Part shown: positions 9,437 to 43,716 of the stretch, piece by piece
How positions within the stretch are numbered: the stretch's first letter is position 1
Layout of the letters: every line of letters starts with the position of its first letter
Source of the DNA: Alphaproteobacteria bacterium
Lineage (GTDB): Bacteria; Pseudomonadota; Alphaproteobacteria; UBA9219
Length of the DNA: 64,000 nt
Reading direction: 5' to 3'
NCBI GenBank assembly: GCA_013286365.1
Contig: JABDFY010000006.1
Span: 1,881-65,880 of the forward strand
Translations under genes and position numbers: made by a program
Notes under the pieces: model-generated
Seen by the model: the letters and a program-made list of their open reading frames with translations, nothing else
Told to the model about the DNA's origin: nothing
The model's database searches: none

Positions 9437-9511
9437 GGGTGCGTAGCTCAGCGGCAGAGCATTACCTTCACACGGTAGGGGTCACAGGTTCAATCCCTGT
9501 CGCACCCACCA
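9437..9511 (+). tRNA. tRNA-Val (anticodon CAC), CCA encoded
   Basis: Cloverleaf folded by hand: acceptor GGGTGCG/CGCACCC, D arm GCTC-AGCGGCA-GAGC, anticodon arm TTACC-TTCACAC-GGTAG (anticodon CAC at 9469-9471), T arm ACAGG-TTCAATC-CCTGT, then ACCA. Confidence 0.95.
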
Positions 9512-14547: not shown

Positions 14548-14594
14548 CCTTCACACGGTAGGGGTCACAGGTTCAATCCCTGTCGCACCCACCA
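14548..14594 (+). repeat. Perfect 47-bp copy of the tRNA-Val 3-prime end (anticodon loop to CCA); attR-like
   Basis: Base-for-base identical to 9465-9511. It is followed by a 10-bp-stem inverted repeat, TTTCAATGAT-ttagtg-ATCATTGAAA. Confidence 0.95.
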
Positions 14595-32036: not shown

Positions 32037-32131
32037 AATTGATTTGCCCATTTGCATATCCGGCGGCACTTTAAGGCACAAAAAGACGCGATAAATCTCT
32101 GAATTGCCAGCGCATACTGATTTCCTATGTT

Positions 32132-32174
32132 TTCACACGGTAGATGTCATAGGTTCAATGCCTTTCCATCACCA
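32132..32174 (+). repeat. Degenerate copy of the tRNA-Val 3-prime end plus about 100 bp of flank homologous to the 14595 flank
   Basis: ttcacacggtagatgtcataggttcaatgcctttccatcacca, followed by attcaatgatttagccgccactgaaatgatcgag. Compare tttcaatgatttagtgatcattgaaatgattgag at 14595. Confidence 0.65.
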
Positions 32175-32364
32175 ATTCAATGATTTAGCCGCCACTGAAA
32201 TGATCGAGAATCCTACCTAATGCCGGTAAAGTTTGATAGTAAACTATACATGCCTTAGGCAGAGGTCGCTGAATTCATTAGATCAAACAAAACTCAAACT
32301 GATACTCTTTTAAAGAAAGCAACGCACTTCTCGCAAGAGTTATACTTTCTAGTCTGCCATTTCA

Positions 32365-33564
32365 ATGGGCTCGATCACAACCATGCGCATAGAACGCAAT
32401 CTGAAACTCATCGGGTTCTTTACAGTTTGCGGTAGCATGCTGTTTCTTATCCCGGTCATATTACCTTATTACAGCGAGGTGATAGGCCTTGGGTACAGAG
32501 AGTTTTTATATGGAGAGACAGCATATGCCGCAGCTATTGTGCTTTTTGATGTTCCGACAGGCTGGATATCTGATGTGTGGAAGCGCAAACACACTTTAGC
32601 ACTTGGCTACATTCTCAATATGATCGGGTGGTGCATACTTTTAATTGCCCATAGTCTCTGGCAAGCCATTTTAGCCCAAACCTTTCTTGGGCTTTGTTAC
32701 AGTCTGTTGTCAGGATCTAACACTGCTCTCCTTTATGATTCACTACTTTCCGTAGATCGCAAAAATGAATATCGCAAAAAGGAAGGCAAACGAATGGCGT
32801 TGTCGCTTTATGCCATAGCTGGGGCCAGCGTTGTGGGTGGTTTTCTGTATTCAATTAATCGGTATCTTCCTATTTATACGACACTAATTGCAAACTTTAT
32901 TGCCCTCATCGCGGTTCTTATGATAGATGAGCCCGAGCGTCATAAAAGGATAGGACAGAAGCATCCTGTGGCCGATATAATCGAGACAATAAAGTATGCT
33001 CTGCATGGTCATGCTGAAGTGGGCTTTATTATCATTTTTACTGCCGTGCTGTTTTGTTCTACCAAACTCATCATGATATCGCAGCAGCCTTATTACATGG
33101 CGCTCAATTTTCCAAAGGCTGCTTTTGGCATACTGATTGCCGTCGGATTCTTTTTAGGCGGCGCATCAAGCCATTGGGCGCACCTTCTTGACGGCAAGAT
33201 TAATACCTTTCGGGCCTTGATGTTTGCTTGGGCCTTGGCGTTTTTTGTCTGCGTCGGTGCTGGACTACATATTGGACTATCTGGGGTGGCTTTATTGATG
33301 GTAGGCGGAAGCTGCATTTATGGAGCTGCAGCTCCACGTGTGAATGAAGCCATCAATCGGCTTGTCGGGTCTGAAAGACGAGCTACGATCCTTTCGACAC
33401 TCAGTTTTATGACGTCTCTGCTCGCAATACCCATGAGTGCCCTTATAGGGTGGATATCGGGTATTGGTGGCGTTCAATTATCTCTTTTTGGAATAGCTTT
33501 ATGGCTTTGTTTGTCTGGCGCATGCCTTGTTGCATGGAAAATGGGGCGGACCCAGGCCACTTAA
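32365..33564 (+). CDS. MFS-type transporter
   Basis: 399 aa with about 12 hydrophobic segments and a central loop, DRKNEYRKKEGKR, in an MFS-like arrangement. Confidence 0.6.
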   Translation: MGSITTMRIERNLKLIGFFTVCGSMLFLIPVILPYYSEVIGLGYREFLYGETAYAAAIVLFDVPTGWISDVWKRKHTLALGYILNMIGWCILLIAHSLWQAILAQTFLGLCYSLLSGSNTALLYDSLLSVDRKNEYRKKEGKRMALSLYAIAGASVVGGFLYSINRYLPIYTTLIANFIALIAVLMIDEPERHKRIGQKHPVADIIETIKYALHGHAEVGFIIIFTAVLFCSTKLIMISQQPYYMALNFPKAAFGILIAVGFFLGGASSHWAHLLDGKINTFRALMFAWALAFFVCVGAGLHIGLSGVALLMVGGSCIYGAAAPRVNEAINRLVGSERRATILSTLSFMTSLLAIPMSALIGWISGIGGVQLSLFGIALWLCLSGACLVAWKMGRTQAT

Positions 33565-33618
33565 GGTATTCGGCTTCTTGCTATATCAGTCATGTGGATG
33601 AAATAGATCGGGTTCACT

Positions 33619-34893
33619 TCAGGGGATAAAATTGTTGTCTTTGATTAGAACCATAACCGCATGAGATACGCAAATACCATCATTGCCTAACTTCGGACTA
33701 TTCGTGATTGCATTGCCTGTTATCGTAACGTCTCTAATCTGTGGGCCACCTGCGTCTAGAGCATTGCCATCGACTTCAATTGGGCATTGCTTTGTACCAG
33801 AAACCTGATTGCCGCTAATTTTACCATCGGACGCGTTTTGAACAAGAATTCCTTCACCCCATCTCGGGTTTTGATTAGAAAGAACGTTTTCAACTACATT
33901 GTCGCTAATATCGAAACCTACCGATGGTGTTGGATTGCCGTTCGGCCACCCGGAAATCTCGATGGCAGTGATTGCCGTGTTGTGAGCGATATTTTTGGTG
34001 ATGATGATGTTTGTTCCTGCAAAATGAATGGCGTGCCCCATTTGGTTGATAATACCATTATCTTCAATTGTATTTTCCGTAATCACGATGTCCTTGTTGT
34101 TAGGGCTATATCCGTTGATATCGAGGCCATTATGGCTAACGTAATTCTTCGAAATATTAACATTCTCTACCCCTGCTGAAGCTTGGGCACCTGGATCACT
34201 CGCTCCTCCATCGCCGTTGCCTGCGATAATTGTCATGGGGGACAAAGCGCAGTCTTCAATGTGGTTGTCATGGAAATAAAGATCATGTGCCTGTTCTGTT
34301 ATGTAATCGACGGCGATGCCGTGGCGGCCGGTATGCACTATCCGATTATTGGCTATTTCCCAGTTGGCATCTCCGCTGGAAAGCTCTACGGCACTCAACG
34401 GAATATCATGAAAATATATATTGTTCAGAAGCACGTCTGTCACATGACCGCTCGAAACGATGCTGCTTATCTTGGTAAATTGCGTAAGAACATTTGAACG
34501 ACCGTCGATTTCAAGTCCATCAATTTGAATATTTTTGGAATATTTAGGTATCGATAAAATCGGTGTGCCATCAATAGCGTTTCCGCCGAGCACTAGCTTT
34601 GCGCCGGTCGCAAATATGTTGACGCCATTTTTCGGCATAGCGAGGGAAGTGACAGTGTAGGTGCCCCCGGGCAATATAAGCCTTTTACCTCCGGCCTCAT
34701 TCAAAGCCGCCTGCAAGGCGTTAGTGCTATCGGCAGCGCCGGTTGGGTCAAGTCCAGGAAAATTTTTGGCAATCGCGATAATTGTGAAGTTGTTAAAGCC
34801 AGATGGCTGGCTATATGCATAGTCTGTACTCAGAAAAAGAAAAAATAGCACAGTCAGCGCAGATACACAGATGCCGACACCATATTTCCGCAT
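33619..34893 (-). CDS. Secreted right-handed parallel beta-helix (pectin-lyase-fold) protein
   Basis: Signal/TM MRKYGVGICVSALTVLFFLFLS from ATG 34893. The N-terminal DPTGAADSTNALQAALNEAGGKRLILPGGTYTV is typical of the Pectate_lyase_3 type. Periodic segments such as NITI.GN...N run through the rest of the protein. Confidence 0.6.
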   Translation of the reverse strand: MRKYGVGICVSALTVLFFLFLSTDYAYSQPSGFNNFTIIAIAKNFPGLDPTGAADSTNALQAALNEAGGKRLILPGGTYTVTSLAMPKNGVNIFATGAKLVLGGNAIDGTPILSIPKYSKNIQIDGLEIDGRSNVLTQFTKISSIVSSGHVTDVLLNNIYFHDIPLSAVELSSGDANWEIANNRIVHTGRHGIAVDYITEQAHDLYFHDNHIEDCALSPMTIIAGNGDGGASDPGAQASAGVENVNISKNYVSHNGLDINGYSPNNKDIVITENTIEDNGIINQMGHAIHFAGTNIIITKNIAHNTAITAIEISGWPNGNPTPSVGFDISDNVVENVLSNQNPRWGEGILVQNASDGKISGNQVSGTKQCPIEVDGNALDAGGPQIRDVTITGNAITNSPKLGNDGICVSHAVMVLIKDNNFIP

Positions 34894-35150
34894 TAAACGA
34901 GTTATATCTTTTGTTCCAAATTTCACAATAAGCTTTCCTGAAAATATCAGTTGCTTTACTTCTTCGTACTCACCTACCAGACATACAATGGAAGTCAAAG
35001 AAAAAACATGGTAAATTTATTTTCAACTAAAAATGAAAAAATAGGCCTATGAGTTCTCAAAATGTACCTGGCTTTGCCGGAAGTCATTGATTAACCGTAC
35101 TTTACCACGTGGCTTAACAATAAAGTTTAAGTGTGTTTCCTTATATACGC

Positions 35151-37964
35151 TTACCTGATCGTTACGTTTGTATGAGACTGGTAACGACTATTGTTGATTG
35201 TGTAATAGCGACCCTTGTCAGTAACAATCTCCCATATATCCGGGCGTTCCTGAGAAATACGATTGACCCAGTCATCGACTAGTTTATGACAAACCTGACG
35301 TTGTCCGTGGAATTCAATAAGCGGACCCACCGGATCAAAATATATTCCCAGTTTTGCCAAAAGATCGATGAGGAATGGCTCCATCTCCGCGCACCACTGT
35401 TTCACGTTATGTTGTTTGGCGAGCAAAAAGAGCATGCTTATGAGACCAAGAGACATCGCCGGAATGATACGCGCCCGATCAAAGGCTAATTCCTCTTCTG
35501 TATAGCCAGACCCTCTCAATGTATCGGCCACACGGCGACGTAATTCCCGAGAAATACAAAATCTGGAAATTTCTGCCATATTTTTCAAAGGCACTAATTG
35601 TGGTATCTGAAGATTATTTTCAGTGCAGATTTTATGGACAGGAAACACTCCGGTTGTCGCATTTTCTGGATGCAGAATGAGCCTGACCGTGCCGATGAAA
35701 AGACCTGTTTCTCGATGACGTAATAGAGCATGTACGGAATGCGTATCATACTCGTCTTTCTCAAGTTGGGCTGAGTTGAATTTATTGCTATTTTTTTGCC
35801 AATCATATTCGAGACAATAGACCTTGTACCTCAGCTTATAGCATTCGTTGCGAAGAGCATCCGTATCGGCAATAACAGAATCGAAAATGCTATGATAATA
35901 ATCGTAAAGAGAAGGTTTGGTTTTAGCAGGAGCTTCTTTTGCATAAAGCGCCGTTAAAGGTAGGCGCACAGAACGGCTGCTAGAGCGCTGTTTTCTGGGA
36001 TAGCCGATCCGCCCAATAAAGGCGATTTGGGATGGTTTTTTGCCGATCTGGTTCATAAGCCTCTGGCCAAGGCGCACAGATTTTAGAAGCATATTGCTAT
36101 CGTTTGTGAAGACATCTTTTCGTTGTCCGAACAGACTAAACATATGTGTTGCCGTGTTTGGCTGCATCACAAGGCCCATCGACGTCGCCGTGAGCCAGAA
36201 ACGTTGCATGGTTTGACCCATTTGCAAGTATTTTTGGGATGTAACCACGTCTTGTTCTCTATAATAAATGATAAAATGGCTGGAGCAGAACAAACCGGGC
36301 AACAACCCCATTTCTAATTGGGCAATAAGGGTTCCACCACCAAATCGGTTCATGAAATCGATACGTCGCCAGTCCTTCATCAACCAGTGCATAAGTTTAC
36401 ATGTCATCCAGTCGAGGCCTGTGGCCCAGATTGGAACTTTTGCAAGGCTGAATTTCTGTGTCCAATCCAAGATCGCCATGTGGGTTTTAAAAGCCTCAGG
36501 AATACGTAGACGGATATCCGTTGCCATCGCGTTGTTGATGGCTTGCTGCCAGCGCTCTAAAAAGGTTTCATGCCAACTTATAGAAAACTCGTCCCCAAGC
36601 GTAAGCATAAGAGCTCGTTTTTGCTCATCCGATAAAGGTGTCGTGCGATATAGATCGCGATTGACTGATCGGGTTGAGATAAAATTTGCCAGCTTATCGG
36701 CCTTGAGTGTAGGATTTTTAGGCAAGTTTACAACGAGCCGATAAACACCGTTCTCCTCGCTATCCAGAGACCAAGTGAAGTCACGATGATGACACGTTGC
36801 CGCAATCCGGATGGATTCGAGAAGACCGCCTCCGGCCAACAAGGTTGGTACTCCATTATCGAAATCGTAGAAATCTTCTATAGATCTAGCTTTTGCCGTT
36901 GCCAGATAAATAATGGCATGGCTGTCATCGATAATCTCAAAACGCCAAGGCTGCGTATTATCTCCACTTGGGGCCCAGCGCGCCTGATCAAAAATGGCTT
37001 CGATAGCGCGACTATGTACAGGAAGTGGTGGATGATCTGCGTTGCTTAGACGCTCAAACTGACGGTGAGTAATTGCAATTTTGAAGCGCTGGAGAAGATT
37101 TGCATTCCCACCTACCAACCTTGCTCGTTTCCATTTGCACTTATAGGCATCAAAATGATGATACCAGGGCGCGGCATAAATCGGACCACGTTTGAGGAGT
37201 AGTTTCAAGATTTGTGCAGCTGCAACACCAGCGCATAATTCGCAGGAAAGACCTGTCGAAGGCACGCGTTGATTTTTAATATCAAAACGTGTTTTATCAA
37301 CCAAATAGGAACGATGTAGCCCGGCCGGGGTTAGCCCCAAAAGAAAATGAACCATCTGCTTATCTTTTGGAAAATCGCGCATGCAGAAATAATCTTCGAA
37401 ACTCATTCCGTCTTTTGTGAAAACAAGATAGGCAGCCCCCATACCAGCAGGCGCTGCTGTGACGGCTGGAATCCCAAGTTCATGACAAAGGGAAAAAATC
37501 TTGCGTCGTGTATCGAGAACAAAAAAGTCGAGCCCGTCGAGATAGACATCGACCCCTTCAAGAAATGAGTTGATGTTATTATCCGTAACGCCGTCCTTAA
37601 ACTTCCTAATATCGAGTTCAGGGTTAATAGTGCGTGCCATCTCGGCCATCGTATCGGCTTTTGATTTGCCGATAGATGATAGCGATGCGCCAGCCTGCCG
37701 ATTGAAGTTTGCCAGCTCAAAATTGTCAAAATCGGCAATATTAAAGGCGCCAATGCCAAGCCTGGTCAGCGTCAGAAGATGTGAACCGCCAACGCCTCCC
37801 ATTCCAGCAATGGCTATACGCTTATAACGGAGTTCTTGTTGTTCGAAAGCGGTGACCCATCCGAGATTGCGGCTAAAGGCTTCGTCATAAGAAAATAATG
37901 GAGCGTCAGGCGTTTCGCGCAATTTTTCAGATTCCATTAGATGCGACCAATTGGATGAGGCCAA
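35151..37964 (-). CDS. Tri-domain fusion: E1/ThiF-like adenylyltransferase + nitroreductase-like (tandem) + N-acyl amino acid synthase (LuxI-related, TIGR03694-like)
   Basis: The 937-aa ORF is uninterrupted. ThiF motifs, aa ~45-265 (nt ~37170-37832): IAGMGGVGG, DFDNFELANFNRQ, INPELDI, LDGLDFF. Nitroreductase motifs, aa ~315-665 (nt ~35970-37022): ARWAPSGDNTQPWRFEII, FISTRSVNRDLY. NAS motifs, aa ~690-905 (nt ~35250-35897): CYKLRYKVYCLEYDW, EKDEYD, GTVRLIL, AEISRFCIS. Confidence 0.7.
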   Translation of the reverse strand: MASSNWSHLMESEKLRETPDAPLFSYDEAFSRNLGWVTAFEQQELRYKRIAIAGMGGVGGSHLLTLTRLGIGAFNIADFDNFELANFNRQAGASLSSIGKSKADTMAEMARTINPELDIRKFKDGVTDNNINSFLEGVDVYLDGLDFFVLDTRRKIFSLCHELGIPAVTAAPAGMGAAYLVFTKDGMSFEDYFCMRDFPKDKQMVHFLLGLTPAGLHRSYLVDKTRFDIKNQRVPSTGLSCELCAGVAAAQILKLLLKRGPIYAAPWYHHFDAYKCKWKRARLVGGNANLLQRFKIAITHRQFERLSNADHPPLPVHSRAIEAIFDQARWAPSGDNTQPWRFEIIDDSHAIIYLATAKARSIEDFYDFDNGVPTLLAGGGLLESIRIAATCHHRDFTWSLDSEENGVYRLVVNLPKNPTLKADKLANFISTRSVNRDLYRTTPLSDEQKRALMLTLGDEFSISWHETFLERWQQAINNAMATDIRLRIPEAFKTHMAILDWTQKFSLAKVPIWATGLDWMTCKLMHWLMKDWRRIDFMNRFGGGTLIAQLEMGLLPGLFCSSHFIIYYREQDVVTSQKYLQMGQTMQRFWLTATSMGLVMQPNTATHMFSLFGQRKDVFTNDSNMLLKSVRLGQRLMNQIGKKPSQIAFIGRIGYPRKQRSSSRSVRLPLTALYAKEAPAKTKPSLYDYYHSIFDSVIADTDALRNECYKLRYKVYCLEYDWQKNSNKFNSAQLEKDEYDTHSVHALLRHRETGLFIGTVRLILHPENATTGVFPVHKICTENNLQIPQLVPLKNMAEISRFCISRELRRRVADTLRGSGYTEEELAFDRARIIPAMSLGLISMLFLLAKQHNVKQWCAEMEPFLIDLLAKLGIYFDPVGPLIEFHGQRQVCHKLVDDWVNRISQERPDIWEIVTDKGRYYTINNSRYQSHTNVTIR

Positions 37965-38061
37965 TTTGAGAATTTTTGGCGTAACTCATTGTCTTGGCTT
38001 AGAAATTAATACGTAACCAAACTGGATATCTATGATTAAATTGCCTATATAATTACCTATA

Positions 38062-38078
38062 TTGCATATTTTATGCAA
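38062..38078. promoter_or_regulatory. Perfect 17-bp palindrome (TTGCATA-TTT-TATGCAA) in the divergent intergenic region; candidate operator
   Basis: Read directly. It lies 23 bp upstream of the XRE regulator ATG at 38102 and about 100 bp upstream of the tri-domain gene start at 37964. A direct repeat, cctatat-aatta-cctatat, sits next to it at 38044-38062. Confidence 0.4.
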
Positions 38079-38101
38079 ACCTAGCCCCATGGAACGCTAC
38101 G

Positions 38102-38821
38102 ATGATTGCTATTGAACAAATACGCGCCGCACGCGCCATGGTGAACTGGTCACAGCGTCAATTGGCTGCAGCGGCAGGTCTCTCATTGCGCAACATCCAT
38201 AACATCGAAGCGGGATTAGTCGTCCCAAGACTTGAGACCATTAAGGCAATAAAAACTGCCCTAGAAAAAGCTAACATCGAATTTGGCGATGACTGCACAG
38301 TAACGTTGCGTCGCGAAGTATTCGACATAGAAAAACGCGAAGGGGAAGGTGCGCTCGAATCTTTAGTGCGAGATTTTATGGAAGCCTATCGTCAAGGCAC
38401 TAAGGAACTATTGCTATGTAATACAATAGAAAAAAAATGGGTTGAGATGGTAACCAGCGCCATGAACGAAGAATATAACAAAAGCTTGATGCGCTTTGGC
38501 GTGAAAGAACGCTGTTTAATCGCTCACGGTGACAAGACGATGTTTGGCTATCCTACATTCTATCGCTGGATGCCTAAAGAATATTTTAGAGAAGTTTCCT
38601 ATGCGGTATATGGAACTACATTAGCTCTAATCATATGGTCTCCGACTGTGCGAATTGCCATAATTCGTAACACGCATATTGCCGATAGTTACCGCCGCCA
38701 TTTCGAGTTCATCTGGGAACGTTCAGAAATTCCGCCTGTAGCCGAGCTAGCACAACGACACCCTCGTCGCGATGAACCTGAGATTTGGCAGATCGAAAAT
38801 GGTGCCCGCGTCTCAGATTGA
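38102..38821 (+). CDS. XRE-family helix-turn-helix regulator with uncharacterised ~170-aa C-terminal domain
   Basis: N-terminus IRAARAMVNWSQRQLAAAAGLSLRNIHNIEAG is a typical HTH_XRE. The remainder is not recognisable. Confidence 0.65.
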   Translation: MIAIEQIRAARAMVNWSQRQLAAAAGLSLRNIHNIEAGLVVPRLETIKAIKTALEKANIEFGDDCTVTLRREVFDIEKREGEGALESLVRDFMEAYRQGTKELLLCNTIEKKWVEMVTSAMNEEYNKSLMRFGVKERCLIAHGDKTMFGYPTFYRWMPKEYFREVSYAVYGTTLALIIWSPTVRIAIIRNTHIADSYRRHFEFIWERSEIPPVAELAQRHPRRDEPEIWQIENGARVSD

Positions 38822-38895
38822 AGACGTAGACTTCTTCTTGAAGTGCGGCCTATTGTATTTGGAAAAAGAGCGCAGTTGCTGTTTTTGAGATTATA

Positions 38896-39993
38896 TTAAA
38901 AACCAAATCCTTGGTTTGTTGCTGCACCAGTAGATACATTCATGCATTGCTGTTCGATAGTCGGCCGGCATGGATGATCAAGGAACCCCATTTGGCTTGG
39001 GTTTCCCGCTGCCTTTAAGGCCGTGCGAGGGGCTAGCGCACAAAGCAGCCATGCATGCCGATGAAATTTATTGTAACCTTCCATAACCCATTGATGCGCC
39101 ATTCGCGGATTTCTTGCGCACGTAATGCCAAGATTGACCCCCTCCAGCATAGCCTTAGCATGTTCTGGTTCAGCAACCAGATGATCGAGCACATATTGGC
39201 TTTGAGGAAGCTGTTTATTAAATACATTATACTCAACTGTGCCTCTGGTTTCCAAAGCCAGCATATAACCGAGCAGCTTGTATATCTTTCTATCGGTAAC
39301 TCTCCCACGAATACACAAAGTGTTGGTCATGCTCCTGCCAATACTTCGTAGCCATAGAGGTGTCTTAACAATATGTGGATCGGTTGAAGTGATCCCCGCT
39401 TTCTCCATAGCAGCGGCTTGCCACTCCTGACCCAACACAATATGCCCTGCCCCTACAAAATCATCCGCCATAGCCAGAAATATTTTGCCAGCGATGTCTG
39501 TAGAGCGATCGCCGGATTGCCCTGGCTGGTTGCGATCTTGAAACAATCCCTGCCTAAACGAAAGTGAGATCCTACTTAATGCACCAGCGCTCGCCCCTGG
39601 CGCCGTGCGATTGAATTTCAAAACATATGAAATCAAATAAGCAGTCGCTCGATCATCTCCTTTGACCAAGCCACACATATTCCAGAACAAGTCACGGTAA
39701 TCACTCTCTGAATGCGCGCGATTTAAATCTGCTTCCGTTATTCGCCAGTCAGTACGAATATTATTTAGTTTCTGCAAATAATCTTCGAAAAAATCACCAA
39801 AAAGCATAGCCCCCACTGATCTGGGCCTAAATAACAATATCAAAGGATTACTTAATACGATCCCTAATGCTGTCCGAGGATAGTATTCAGAATAACCAAA
39901 ACCAAAATCAGGGATAATTCTTTCCAGACACCTATCGGTTGCTACGGCTAAATTATACCTGGTTGATTCGCGGACGTAAAACGCAGAGAACAT
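38896..39993 (-). CDS. Hypothetical protein, possibly heme-oxygenase-like di-iron (iron-containing redox enzyme) fold
   Basis: Candidate ligand-type motifs spaced as in HDO/Haem_oxygenase_2 proteins: MADDFVGAGH, LALETRG and LDHLVAEPEHA. This is weak, motif-level evidence only. Confidence 0.3.
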   Translation of the reverse strand: MFSAFYVRESTRYNLAVATDRCLERIIPDFGFGYSEYYPRTALGIVLSNPLILLFRPRSVGAMLFGDFFEDYLQKLNNIRTDWRITEADLNRAHSESDYRDLFWNMCGLVKGDDRATAYLISYVLKFNRTAPGASAGALSRISLSFRQGLFQDRNQPGQSGDRSTDIAGKIFLAMADDFVGAGHIVLGQEWQAAAMEKAGITSTDPHIVKTPLWLRSIGRSMTNTLCIRGRVTDRKIYKLLGYMLALETRGTVEYNVFNKQLPQSQYVLDHLVAEPEHAKAMLEGVNLGITCARNPRMAHQWVMEGYNKFHRHAWLLCALAPRTALKAAGNPSQMGFLDHPCRPTIEQQCMNVSTGAATNQGFGF

Positions 39994-40406: not shown

Positions 40407-41228
40407 ATGACCATAGGCAATGTAACTAATTCATTTTCTCTGCAGTCAAGCTTGACGGCACTAGCCAACAATGAACAGCAATTGAAGACAACAGAGCAAC
40501 AGTTGTCTACTGGTAAATCCGTTAATTCGCCCTCGGACAACGCGACGGCATTTTACGCTTCGCAGAATTTTCTTCAGCAGGCAAATGACCTCGCGAGCCT
40601 AAAGGACAATCTCGCAACCTCTTTGGCGACTGTAAATTCAACCACGAGTTCGATTTCAGATGTCACCCAAGTCGTTCAACAGCTTCAAGGAATAACTGCC
40701 CAAGCAGCCGGCACCACGGATACGACCACCCGGGCCAATTTAGCAACACAATATAACGCGCTGCTTCCCCAGCTCGATCAGCTGGTCAATGACGCAACAT
40801 TTAACGGCACTAATTTGATCAATAACACATCAACAAGTCTCACAGTGAACTTCAATGCCAACAATACATCGGGAGTGACAATTCCCAGCGTTAACGTCAC
40901 ATCAAGCGGTCTCAACATCACCAGTGTATCGAACGGTTTTGCGACGACAGCCGACATTAATGCAGCCAACTCACAATTACAGAGTGCATTGTCGACATTG
41001 AATGCCAACGCCGCTAGCTTCGGTGATAACGCTACATTGATCCAAACCAATCAGGATTTTACATCCAATTTGATCAATAACCTTCAAACGGCGTCAGATA
41101 ACCTGACTTTGGCGGACACCAATCAGGAAGCCGCAAGCCTTCTGGCACTCCAGGCACAGAACCAATTAAGTGTTGCGTCGCTGGGTATATCAGGCCAACT
41201 GTCACAAGCCGTTCTAAAGTTATTTTAA
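40407..41228 (+). CDS. Flagellin (short alphaproteobacterial type, 273 aa)
   Basis: N-terminal QQLSTGKSVNSPSDNATAFYAS, central FNGTNLIN, and C-terminal ADTNQEAASLLALQAQNQLSVASLGISGQLSQAVLKLF. This is the conserved flagellin D0/D1 pattern, and the length matches Caulobacter-type flagellins. GGAG lies upstream. Confidence 0.8.
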   Translation: MTIGNVTNSFSLQSSLTALANNEQQLKTTEQQLSTGKSVNSPSDNATAFYASQNFLQQANDLASLKDNLATSLATVNSTTSSISDVTQVVQQLQGITAQAAGTTDTTTRANLATQYNALLPQLDQLVNDATFNGTNLINNTSTSLTVNFNANNTSGVTIPSVNVTSSGLNITSVSNGFATTADINAANSQLQSALSTLNANAASFGDNATLIQTNQDFTSNLINNLQTASDNLTLADTNQEAASLLALQAQNQLSVASLGISGQLSQAVLKLF

Positions 41229-41336: not shown

Positions 41337-41798
41337 CTATCGCGTAGCTCTCAATAATTGCCGCCAACCACCGCGTCGATTGACACCCGTCTGCGTAAGA
41401 GCGCCCAGGGCGAGTGTCGCGACAGCGGCAGCACCTGCTAATTCTGTATTTGGAAACCTACGTTGTGTGACAGCCGTTATAGCGGCACTCGTTAGTGTCA
41501 TCAAAACGTTACCTGCCGTTCTGATGCGATTGGCATGTCGTCGAACATTACAATCAATTCCATAATGCTGTAAAATATTGCCGTCCCAATTTTGAGCGTT
41601 TCGCGCTAGTTTATTCATATATAAACCTGTTGTGATCAAGCTAGCCTCGACAAACTCTAAAGGAAGTCCCTTATAAGCAACATAAGCTGCAATACAAGTA
41701 CCCAACGCCGCAGCCAAGGAAGCAATCGGTAACTTATCCTCCAACGGCATGAGCAATCTCGCACCATAGGCCTTAAATAATATCGATAACCTATTCAT
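41337..41798 (-). CDS. Hypothetical membrane protein
   Basis: 153-aa ORF with hydrophobic segments. No motif recognised. Confidence 0.3.
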   Translation of the reverse strand: MNRLSILFKAYGARLLMPLEDKLPIASLAAALGTCIAAYVAYKGLPLEFVEASLITTGLYMNKLARNAQNWDGNILQHYGIDCNVRRHANRIRTAGNVLMTLTSAAITAVTQRRFPNTELAGAAAVATLALGALTQTGVNRRGGWRQLLRATR

Positions 41799-41874: not shown

Positions 41875-42510
41875 TTAATAACCTTTTGTCTTTGCATAAT
41901 CAATCATCCAGAGCTTACGAGGTCCACGAAAATGAATAAGTGCGGCCTCATCCAAATTATCTTGCTGTTTGTCAGGTGTTCGACAATAGGTATCGTAATC
42001 AAGTTCTTTTATAGTTAAACTTGTATCGATCGTCGCGCGTAGAAATGCCGTTTGTCCGCCTTCCCAGCCATCCTTGACACGAAACGACTGATAAACGGCC
42101 AAGGCCTGATTAAATATCTCTCCGCCGCCTGGTTTTATGAAATCAACGTCGCCGCAAAATGCATTGTCATTTCTATCTTTTGCCGGATACCGGCAAGCGG
42201 CAACATGAAAGTCGTCATTAAATACGTCTCTCACATTCTTACAAACCAATACATCCGTCGCAATTTGCAGGATGTTTTCCGGCCGCTCACAGAGCTTAAT
42301 CATGGCCCCAAACCCCCACATAATAAAATCCCCTCTATAAGGGTGGCGCAGCACTTCGTCGACCCCTTCGATACCAGGAAAAGTGTCATTTGACAGTTGC
42401 ACTATCTTAGCGCCTGGAATGTTTTTGCGTACCGAGCCTATGGTATATCGCGCACGTTCGACCGAGGAGACTTCCCCAGTATCTTCTTGTAGGCAGAATG
42501 TCACAATCAT
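41875..42510 (-). CDS. Hypothetical protein, possibly GT-A-fold nucleotide-sugar transferase
   Basis: Start moved to ATG 42510 (MIVTFCLQED), preceded by AGGA. The track ORF starts at TTG 42588. The segment QIATDVLVCKNVRDVF loosely resembles the GT8 region around the DxD motif. Weak evidence. Confidence 0.25.
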   Translation of the reverse strand: MIVTFCLQEDTGEVSSVERARYTIGSVRKNIPGAKIVQLSNDTFPGIEGVDEVLRHPYRGDFIMWGFGAMIKLCERPENILQIATDVLVCKNVRDVFNDDFHVAACRYPAKDRNDNAFCGDVDFIKPGGGEIFNQALAVYQSFRVKDGWEGGQTAFLRATIDTSLTIKELDYDTYCRTPDKQQDNLDEAALIHFRGPRKLWMIDYAKTKGY

Positions 42511-42681
42511 CGGCAATATCCTGATTACTGCAGGTCCACTTTCAAAAGTGATTTTATCGGATATGCAACCATATAGCCATCCTCCCAATCAATATCGGCA
42601 TGCCATTCGATTTAAATTTTTGCTTCGCAATCTAGGCGCTAGCGTCTAAGGTCAAAGACGTACAAGTTTATAGAGGATCCA

Positions 42682-43716
42682 TTGACAGAGCCGTCATCTG
42701 AGGACCCCGTTTCTGGCGCTGAAACGCCATCGCCATCCCAGCCTAAGTTGAGGTTGGGACGTATTATAGCCTTGCTAACCGTCATCATTTTGTTGCCCAT
42801 CGGCCTCAGCGCAGCGGCAATTCTAAGTCCTGGGCCTGTCACAGATACGAAAACACTCGTGATATCGCACGGCATGCGTTCCCCTGAAATCGGCGCCATG
42901 CTCGAGAGTGAGCAAATTATTCCCAACCAAGTCATGTTCCATCTCGCTGTCAAGATTTTGGCAAACGGCGCCCTTCAAGCTGGCGAATATGAGTTCACGC
43001 CGCATCAAAGTTTAGCCGATATCGTGCTGATGATGCATGAAGGACATTCCGTTGTACGTCTTTATACGGTGGCCGAAGGATTAACTTCAGTTGAGATTGT
43101 TGATTTGCTTAAAAATAATTCGACCTTTATGGGTGATGTTACGACTATTCCTGCCGATGGCTCGTTGCTGCCAGAAAGCTATCGCTACAGTTATGGCGAC
43201 ATGCGATCGACCATTATTGAAAGAATGCAAAAAGCAATGCAAGAAACACTTCACCAACTATGGGCCGACCGCGACACAAGCATTCCCTTAAAAACGCCCG
43301 ACGAGGCCTTGGTGATGGCATCCATCATAGAGAAAGAAACTGGAAAGCCACAAGAACGTCCGCGCATCGCTGGTGTATTTTATAATCGTTTGCAGAAAAA
43401 TATGCGTCTGCAATCAGATCCAACCGTCATCTATGCCGTAACACACGGTCAGGGACCTCTGGACCGTGAATTGACGCATGACGATCTTACTTTCCCCTCC
43501 CCCTATAATACTTATACAAATGATGGATTACCGCCGAAATCCATTTGTAATCCGGGACGCGCTTCGATCGAAGCTGCCTTACATCCTGAAAACAATGACT
43601 ATTTGTATTTTGTTGCCGATGGAACTGGCGGTCATGTCTTCGCAAAAGATCTTAGCGAGCACAATCAAAACGTTGCGAAATTGGTGAGTTTAAAAAAAGC
43701 GCAATCCATACAGTGA
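42682..43716 (+). CDS. mltG: Endolytic murein transglycosylase (YceG-like)
   Basis: N-terminal TM, then ASIIEKETG, GVFYNRL, LQSDPTVIY and YNTYTNDGLPPKSICNPG. TTG start in the track. Confidence 0.85.
   Translation: MTEPSSEDPVSGAETPSPSQPKLRLGRIIALLTVIILLPIGLSAAAILSPGPVTDTKTLVISHGMRSPEIGAMLESEQIIPNQVMFHLAVKILANGALQAGEYEFTPHQSLADIVLMMHEGHSVVRLYTVAEGLTSVEIVDLLKNNSTFMGDVTTIPADGSLLPESYRYSYGDMRSTIIERMQKAMQETLHQLWADRDTSIPLKTPDEALVMASIIEKETGKPQERPRIAGVFYNRLQKNMRLQSDPTVIYAVTHGQGPLDRELTHDDLTFPSPYNTYTNDGLPPKSICNPGRASIEAALHPENNDYLYFVADGTGGHVFAKDLSEHNQNVAKLVSLKKAQSIQ

Follow-up and report, generated by a model that had tools for sequence, protein, structure and literature searches.

Oxazolone lipids came to light only in 2020-21, and between 2020 and 2025 the synthesis of N-acyl tyrazolones, phenazolones and tryptazolones by one type of enzyme pair was demonstrated. 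OxzA N-acylates tyrosine or phenylalanine, and OxzB cyclises and desaturates to give tyrazolones and phenazolones; in heterologous expression, oxzAB alone sufficed (bioRxiv 10.1101/2020.06.11.147165). Equivalent chemistry has been described in Mycobacterium tuberculosis for TyzACB (PMC10404671) and for TrzAS, where ATP-dependent cyclisation by TrzS comes before O2-dependent desaturation and the D217A variant of TrzS is cyclase-dead (PMC12856293). Similarly, N-acyl-dehydrotyrosine natural products are made by the same gene trio (PMC12479983). In the characterised systems, the amino acid that is N-acylated is aromatic. The physiological role of oxazolones is considered a major unresolved question by the authors of the M. 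tuberculosis study (PMC12856293). Here, these systems are compared with a locus at positions 32,365 to 39,993 of a 64,000-nucleotide stretch of DNA (the window) from an Alphaproteobacteria bacterium of the UBA9219 lineage (assembly GCA_013286365.1, contig JABDFY010000006.1, positions 1,881 to 65,880). We consider it likely that the whole N-acyl-oxazolone pathway is encoded as a single polypeptide by one gene of this locus, at 35151-37964, and that the four neighbours of this gene do not form a conserved cluster with it.

A fused OxzB-OxzA protein

A first-pass annotation, made from the letters of the window and a list of its open reading frames (ORFs), had described this gene as a ThiF-nitroreductase-N-acyl amino acid synthase fusion. 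Pfam and NCBIfam confirm the tri-domain architecture, with ThiF, Nitroreductase and TIGR03694 matches in one ORF, and the claim of a synthase also stands: the product is a genuine small-molecule biosynthetic enzyme, homologous to OxzB and OxzA together. The C-terminal domain (residues 688-920) scores 223.2 bits with TIGR03694, against a cutoff of 111.95, and is 53-66% identical, over its full length, to free-standing acyltransferases of ~260 aa. The ThiF part reaches 423 bits with NF006077 (cutoff 266 bits), the alignment to NF011424/PRK14851 spans residues 27-632, and matches to the Rv1355c and Acg families cover residues 314-671 (E 2e-41 for the Rv1355c family). Positions 311-738 of another NCBIfam model, PRK14852 (989 positions), match the ThiF and nitroreductase part.

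The residues expected of such an enzyme can be followed through both halves of the OxzB region. In the ThiF domain, the nucleotide loop G54-G60, R89, K102 and D146 are invariant and align with the motifs of Escherichia coli ThiF, D146 pairing with the catalytic CTD Asp of that protein; the nearest Protein Data Bank (PDB) relatives of the domain are the oxazolone-forming tRNA dehydratase TcdA, and ThiF. In the flavin domain, the homologue alignment contains three invariant blocks (R329-F342, R432-R436 and R664-R667), and every residue that is invariant among 22 homologues is kept in the fusion protein. The public gene call gives 928 aa from an ATG at 37937, and an alternative TTG start lies nine codons earlier, at 37964. 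The 90%-identity cluster of the 928-aa public protein is represented by a 50-aa fragment, which is why this protein is missing from its own homology matches.

The chemistry of the fusion can be proposed by analogy with the published enzymology. The C-terminal OxzA-type domain would N-acylate an amino acid, with acyl-CoA as the donor. The ThiF-like domain would then adenylate the carboxylate of the N-acyl amino acid, after which the amide oxygen would close the oxazolone ring, and the central nitroreductase-type flavin domain would desaturate the C-alpha/C-beta bond with O2. This would yield a 4-arylidene-oxazol-5-one lipid of the tyrazolone, phenazolone or tryptazolone type, which would hydrolyse to an N-acyl-dehydroamino acid. 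A natural one-polypeptide pathway is a ready-made construct for biocatalysis; moreover, the fusion allows a test of whether the N-acyl amino acid intermediate is channelled, and of whether the cyclise-then-desaturate order of TrzS is imposed.

When 5.8 billion protein clusters were searched by word index, 1870 homologues of the fusion protein were found. Nearly all of the matches listed are two-domain ThiF-nitroreductase proteins of ~670 aa that are 46-60% identical to the fusion, and in most homologues the two domains are fused in frame, as here. Homologues from Pseudoalteromonas ardens (locus L070, 42%) and Pseudocolwellia agarivorans (L062) show 41-42% identity. P. ardens shares its genus with the characterised P. 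rubra, the comparison here being with the L070 homologue and not with the characterised OxzB sequence; Pseudocolwellia is presumably close to Colwellia, going by its name.

Gene arrangements were compared over 80 species-level genome loci and the metagenomic relatives L001, L085, L086 and L093/L094. In the closest relatives, L001 and L093 (~60% identity), oxzB is followed by a separate, adjacent oxzA of ~260 aa, at a distance of 240 bp in L001 and 387 bp in L093. In the fusion, homology to OxzB stops at residue 673, 4-5 residues short of the natural C-terminus of the relatives, and homology to OxzA starts at residues 676-685. When the junction itself was used as the query against the 5.8 billion clusters, no match covered both sides; the matches were either free-standing acyltransferases (at most 66% identity) or ThiF-nitroreductase and nitroreductase proteins. 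The fused OxzB-OxzA architecture was found in none of the 80 species loci. Judged from these sequences, the fusion is lineage-specific and arose when an operon with oxzB followed by oxzA lost the stop codon and the spacer between the two genes. The single-polypeptide arrangement is thus a new architecture for a pathway that is itself known and biochemically characterised.

More generally, 51 of 84 loci have an acyltransferase gene next to the ThiF-nitroreductase gene, and its placement varies: in 25/84 it lies immediately upstream on the same strand, and in 15/84 it is on the other strand, mostly as an adjacent, divergent gene. Other arrangements were seen as well. In L002 (10001-12860), an acyltransferase is joined to the N-terminus of ThiF (580 aa) and the nitroreductase is encoded by a gene of its own (374 aa) that comes next. 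In L085 (4110-10016) and L086 (3648-9755), whose proteins show 54-55% identity, genes for a MacB/FtsX permease, an ABC ATPase and a membrane-fusion protein (MFP) stand between the acyltransferase and ThiF-nitroreductase genes; as these MacB-type genes sit inside an apparent oxz operon, dedicated export of the product is suggested for that lineage. Among the closest free-standing relatives of the C-terminal domain is an acyltransferase (64% identity) in L087 (2893-5272), which has no ThiF-nitroreductase neighbour on its 5.5-kb contig and is flanked by a 368-aa protein and a MAPEG-family gene. A fragment of a type IV secretion system coupling protein nearby suggests a mobile-element context. The 368-aa protein was considered as a homologue of the 365-aa protein of the window, or as a nitroreductase domain, and on testing was neither.

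Table 1. Features of the locus and of the fusion gene; positions are those of the window.
Feature	Coordinates	Strand	Details
Degenerate tRNA-Val 3' fragment	~32130-32175	+	matches tRNA-Val 9467-9511 at 37/45 bases; bounds the locus on the left
MFS transporter	32365-33564	+	399 aa; PF07690 MFS_1, E 5e-20
Right-handed beta-helix protein	33619-34893	-	424 aa; PF13229, E 4e-14; ORF open to 34998
OxzB-OxzA fusion gene	35151-37964	-	937 aa from TTG; ThiF + Nitroreductase + N-acyl-amino-acid-synthase
OxzA-like N-acyl amino acid synthase domain	35154-35909	-	residues ~686-937; PF13444 Acetyltransf_5, E 5e-17
Linker YAKEAPAKTKPS	35910-35945	-	~10-12 residues; replaces stop codon and 240-390 bp spacer of relatives
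Nitroreductase-superfamily flavin-dependent desaturase domain (putative)	35946-37034	-	residues ~311-673, OxzB C-terminal half; PF00881
ThiF/E1-like adenylating cyclase domain (putative)	37035-37895	-	residues ~24-310, OxzB N-terminal half; PF00899, E 6e-44
Inverted repeat TTGCATA-N3-TATGCAA	38062-38078	.	perfect; 24 nt upstream of XRE start; candidate XRE operator
XRE-family regulator	38102-38821	+	239 aa; HTH_3 PF01381, E 2e-8
Putative heme-oxygenase-like protein	38896-39993	-	365 aa; without Pfam or NCBIfam match

The XRE regulator and the heme-oxygenase-like protein

The 365-aa protein encoded beyond the regulator had been labelled a possible heme-oxygenase-like di-iron protein in the first-pass annotation, a label that the predicted fold and an invariant ligand-type motif now support. 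Only four relatives were found among 1.84 billion representative proteins in an exhaustive HMMER search; the word-indexed protein search returned nothing but the protein itself, and sequence and profile searches of the PDB gave nothing significant. In the alignment of these five sequences, D177, H184, E248, E254, H271, E275 and H278 are invariant, with the spacing D-x6-H ... E ... H-x3-E-x2-H. We take the D-x6-H and H-x3-E-x2-H set to resemble the three-His/three-carboxylate pattern of the heme-oxygenase-like di-iron oxidase/oxygenase (HDO) class.

A single-sequence AlphaFold2 model of the protein was unusable, with a predicted local distance difference test (pLDDT) score of 35. With the five-sequence alignment, AlphaFold2 predicted a helical core at residues 82-332 with a pLDDT of 70-91 and a predicted template modelling score of 0.67. 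In a Foldseek search with this model, the top 21 matches all have the heme-oxygenase-like fold (PolF, HrmI, BesC and CADD-like proteins), and UndA, PqqC and TenA come within the top 50; most of the best PDB matches are di-iron enzymes. Probability is 1.0 for most and target TM 0.5-0.66, with an E value of only 3.5e-3. The best relative, P0227, reaches 20.8 bits with PF14518, under the gathering score of 28.9, and the Pfam scan gave no match of this family above the gathering score for the window protein. From the predicted fold and the conserved residues, the protein is supported as a putative HDO of a very rare family.

The neighbouring regulator consists of an N-terminal HTH_3 domain and a conserved C-terminal domain of ~170 aa, of unknown function. 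Full-length homologues were found in L089 (477-2948; 73% identity), L095 (7148-8951; 35%) and L092 (46-672; 27%), and in two of these settings the regulator is paired with a relative of the 365-aa protein. In L089, P0227, which is 34% identical to the 365-aa protein, is convergent with the 73%-identical XRE gene. In L095/L096, a remote relative, P0228, comes directly after the XRE homologue; the context is one of housekeeping genes, with no ThiF, nitroreductase or acyltransferase within 13.6 kb. Since the pair recurs in L089 and L095/L096, the latter without oxz, the XRE and HDO-like genes are a two-gene module of their own. This very rare pair of regulator and predicted di-iron enzyme deserves separate study.

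The HDO-like protein of L089 has an extra N-terminal region of 340 aa. A partial gene beyond the XRE gene of L089 was considered as a ThiF N-terminus; it is not ThiF and, across the scaffold gap, looks P450-like by eye. The samples that hold the XRE and HDO-like genes all have identifiers from adjoining JGI/SRA accession series and may share a project or habitat.

The fusion and XRE genes share a divergent intergenic region of 164 bp, within which the perfect inverted repeat lies. A block of this region, ATATTGCATATT..TGCAAA, is also conserved ahead of the XRE gene of L089 (73% identity). Neither the L095 XRE gene nor the two HDO-like genes showed a shared motif in their upstream sequence. The XRE protein would probably bind the predicted operator at 38062-38078 and regulate at least itself. 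As the repeat lies in the region shared with the fusion gene, the protein might possibly regulate that gene too. A wider XRE regulon acting through the repeat was considered and rejected, as the window contains one exact copy, and copies with three mismatches occur at chance level.

Relation of the fusion to its neighbours

The five genes had been proposed to form one compact biosynthetic/signalling cluster. In such a cluster, the fusion would make the scaffold, the heme-oxygenase-like enzyme would tailor it or supply a modified amino or fatty acid precursor, the MFS protein would export, the XRE protein would regulate, and the beta-helix protein may take part. The packing of the genes is indeed tight (gaps of 54-257 bp), their GC content is uniform, and no terminator-like site lies between the fusion and beta-helix genes; moreover, the structurally similar HDO enzymes PolF, BesC, AetD and UndA bind, according to their PDB entry titles, amino or fatty acids, which are the substrate classes of OxzA. 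However, co-occurrence with oxzB homologues does not bear this out. Homologues of the MFS, beta-helix, XRE and 365-aa proteins are absent from all 80 species loci and all five metagenomic relatives, searches of these loci with the four neighbours (tblastn and phmmer) gave self records only, and a hidden Markov model of the HDO-like family had no matches in the oxzB loci. The only conserved partner of oxzB is the acyltransferase, which here is already within the fusion. Exporter-type genes occur within 4 kb sporadically, in only ~9/84 loci; the XRE and HDO-like pair stands without oxz in L095/L096; the MFS, beta-helix and HDO-like genes lack the operator motif in their upstream regions; and oxzAB was all that published heterologous expression required. 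As the four neighbours are not conserved partners, a single five-gene cluster is unsupported, and we regard it as unlikely; proximity by itself over-called a cluster here. A better division of the locus is into the oxz fusion, the XRE/HDO-like module, which is independent of it, and two lineage-specific neighbours, the MFS and beta-helix genes, for which no conserved link to the pathway was found.

A narrower proposal is that the XRE/HDO-like module was recruited beside the fused OxzB-OxzA as a lineage-specific signalling unit. In that case, the di-iron enzyme would act on a precursor (amino acid or acyl) or on the oxazolone itself, and so yield an oxazolone or dehydro-N-acyl amino acid of a new kind; the XRE protein would sense this molecule with its C-terminal domain and act via the operator at 38062-38078, and the MFS protein would export it. 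If true, oxazolones would gain a defined pair of producer and sensor; we consider this quite improbable. A different setting is suggested by the relatives. Clustering of neighbouring ORFs places the typical oxzB gene in an XrtA/PEP-CTERM exopolysaccharide/floc locus (loci L005-L084), with PrsT within 5 kb in 27/83 comparison loci and PrsK, PrsR, a TIGR03013 glycosyltransferase, PepA and a macrolide-type glycosyltransferase recurring near oxzB. This setting of proteobacterial oxzAB may point to the biological role of the pathway; PEP-CTERM goes unmentioned in de Rond et al. (bioRxiv 10.1101/2020.06.11.147165) and in the Tyz paper (PMC10404671). The fusion could accordingly work for an XrtA/PEP-CTERM exosortase and exopolysaccharide/floc system with genes at another place in the genome, the lipid being a signal or component of that system and the local neighbours irrelevant, and the name of TIGR03694, the "PEP-CTERM/exosortase system-associated acyltransferase" family, would fit. 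However, the 40 window ORFs scanned gave no match to PEP-CTERM, PrsK/R/T or exosortase families, and the nearest relatives L001, L085, L086 and L093 are also without these neighbours; we consider this explanation very improbable. Least credible is the reading that errors of assembly or sequencing produced the tri-domain ORF, or that it is a fused pseudogene that has lost activity. Its architecture is unique in the word-indexed search, and the three public records that hold the five-gene locus (JGI 3300020656, the Logan assembly of SRR8422468 and one NCBI record) may come from the same reads. Against this, a single-base error cannot remove a spacer of 240-390 bp and leave both domains complete and in frame, which makes a sequencing artefact unlikely; the conservation of all residues invariant across the homologues, and the full-length identity of the acyltransferase domain to intact free-standing enzymes, argue against a pseudogene. 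The ORF is identical in the independently built JGI and Logan assemblies, and, as the NCBI record has the locus too, the fusion is not confined to the copy studied here. The chance that it is an artefact or pseudogene is therefore minimal.

The preferred reading, a complete oxazolone pathway in one polypeptide beside neighbours that are not its conserved partners, has evidence set against it as well. The fusion scores 377 bits with the full-length PRK14851 model, under the cutoff of 1170, and 142 bits with the Rv1355c family (NF005901), under the cutoff of 476 bits, and so is not a member of the latter; as it falls under these full-length NCBIfam cutoffs, it is a divergent family member, and its fused order might change function or substrate handling. 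Regarding the neighbours, the comparison was by sequence homology to these four proteins and not by family-level annotation of each locus. The nearest relatives do have exporters beside or inside their oxz operons: an MFP gene and an EmrB-like MFS gene follow oxzA in L001, and those of L085 and L086 have been described above, although the exporters of all three are non-homologous to the window MFS protein. In addition, the XRE and fusion genes diverge from each other across 164 bp, with the conserved inverted repeat between them, and the sequence of L089 beyond its XRE gene is lost in a scaffold gap, so that linkage to oxz there is possible.

Genomic setting and known systems

All five ORFs of the first-pass annotation were recovered at the same coordinates, with no housekeeping gene among them, and the tRNA fragment reported just before the locus corresponds to the degenerate 3' piece of tRNA-Val in Table 1. 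On the other side, the core genes mltG, holC, pepA, lptF, lptG and surA start again at 42682. The description of this DNA as horizontally acquired-looking has weak support. The GC content of the five genes is slightly lower than that of the flanking core genes (45.3-46.0% vs 46-51%); the description is better argued from position and scarce homologues, since the locus sits in a variable region between a tRNA fragment and core genes and its genes have few or no homologues.

The complete tRNA-Val lies at 9437-9511, and its 3' end is repeated without mismatch over 41 bp at 14554-14594. Together with the fragment at ~32130-32175, these repeats suggest two tandem islands, at 9437-32175 of the window, and the fragment itself is an old att-type repeat of the upstream island. 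Island 1 contains an FtsH-like AAA/M41 protease and two ORFs without a family match; island 2 contains a 1994-aa alpha-2-macroglobulin and a PbpC-type penicillin-binding protein, as well as a Sel1-repeat protein. No integrase family was matched among the island ORFs scanned. A lone flagellin gene (273 aa, Flagellin_N and Flagellin_C; 40407-41228) lies between the HDO-like gene and two ORFs (41337-41798 and 41875-42588), neither with a family match; no further flagellar genes were seen among the neighbouring ORFs scanned. Two other readings of the locus were tried and set aside: a PADLOC scan for defence systems gave nothing beyond generic E1 and HTH similarity, and a PHROGs scan for a prophage context gave a weak tail-spike match for the beta-helix protein and generic repressor matches.

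Of the two lineage-specific neighbours, the MFS protein has multiple hydrophobic segments and weak similarity to TetA(P)/multidrug MFS proteins, and could be an exporter. The beta-helix gene has the same orientation as the fusion gene and follows it after 257 bp; in the public annotation it encodes 435 aa. When translation is taken from Met36, the N-terminal sequence of the protein is MRKYGVGICVSALTVLFFLFLSTDYAYS/QP, with a single hydrophobic segment at residues 5-23 that is Sec-signal-like by inspection. The protein resembles carbohydrate-active or tailspike enzymes: its PF12708 match is sub-threshold, the PHROG tail-spike match has E 2e-7, and a PDB sequence search gave no match.

Among described systems, OxzA/OxzB of Pseudoalteromonas rubra and other proteobacteria (de Rond, Asay & Moore) are the closest. 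They share the same three modules and the ThiF-nitroreductase fusion, the window protein is 40-60% identical to the family, and the acyltransferase is genetically linked; in the window, however, OxzA is carried on the C-terminus of OxzB (928 aa), whereas the usual oxzA is a separate gene, immediately upstream or divergent. TrzA/TrzS (Rv1356c/Rv1355c) and TyzACB likewise combine a ThiF-like cyclase, a flavin-dependent oxidase and an N-acyltransferase, and the ThiF adenylation Asp is conserved in the window protein. These systems are actinobacterial, with a separate acyltransferase gene, whereas the window protein belongs to the proteobacterial OxzB branch.

In the dehydrotyrosine clusters (PMC12479983), the three enzyme types are co-located and the products, N-acyl-2,3-dehydrotyrosines, are those expected from opening of the oxazolone ring. 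Unlike the window locus, which has no methyltransferase, these clusters have three separate genes and extra methyltransferases, and no oxazolone was observed there. The C-terminal domain of the window protein lies above the cutoff of the TIGR03694 long-chain N-acyl amino acid synthases but differs from them in being part of a fusion, with no PEP-CTERM genes among the window ORFs scanned. Finally, the 365-aa protein shares with the HDOs (UndA, BesC, PolF, HrmI and CADD; PF14518) a predicted helical heme-oxygenase-like fold and an invariant His/carboxylate set, and is set apart from them by an identity of 9-16% to the solved members, by the lack of a Pfam match and by its consistent pairing with an XRE regulator.

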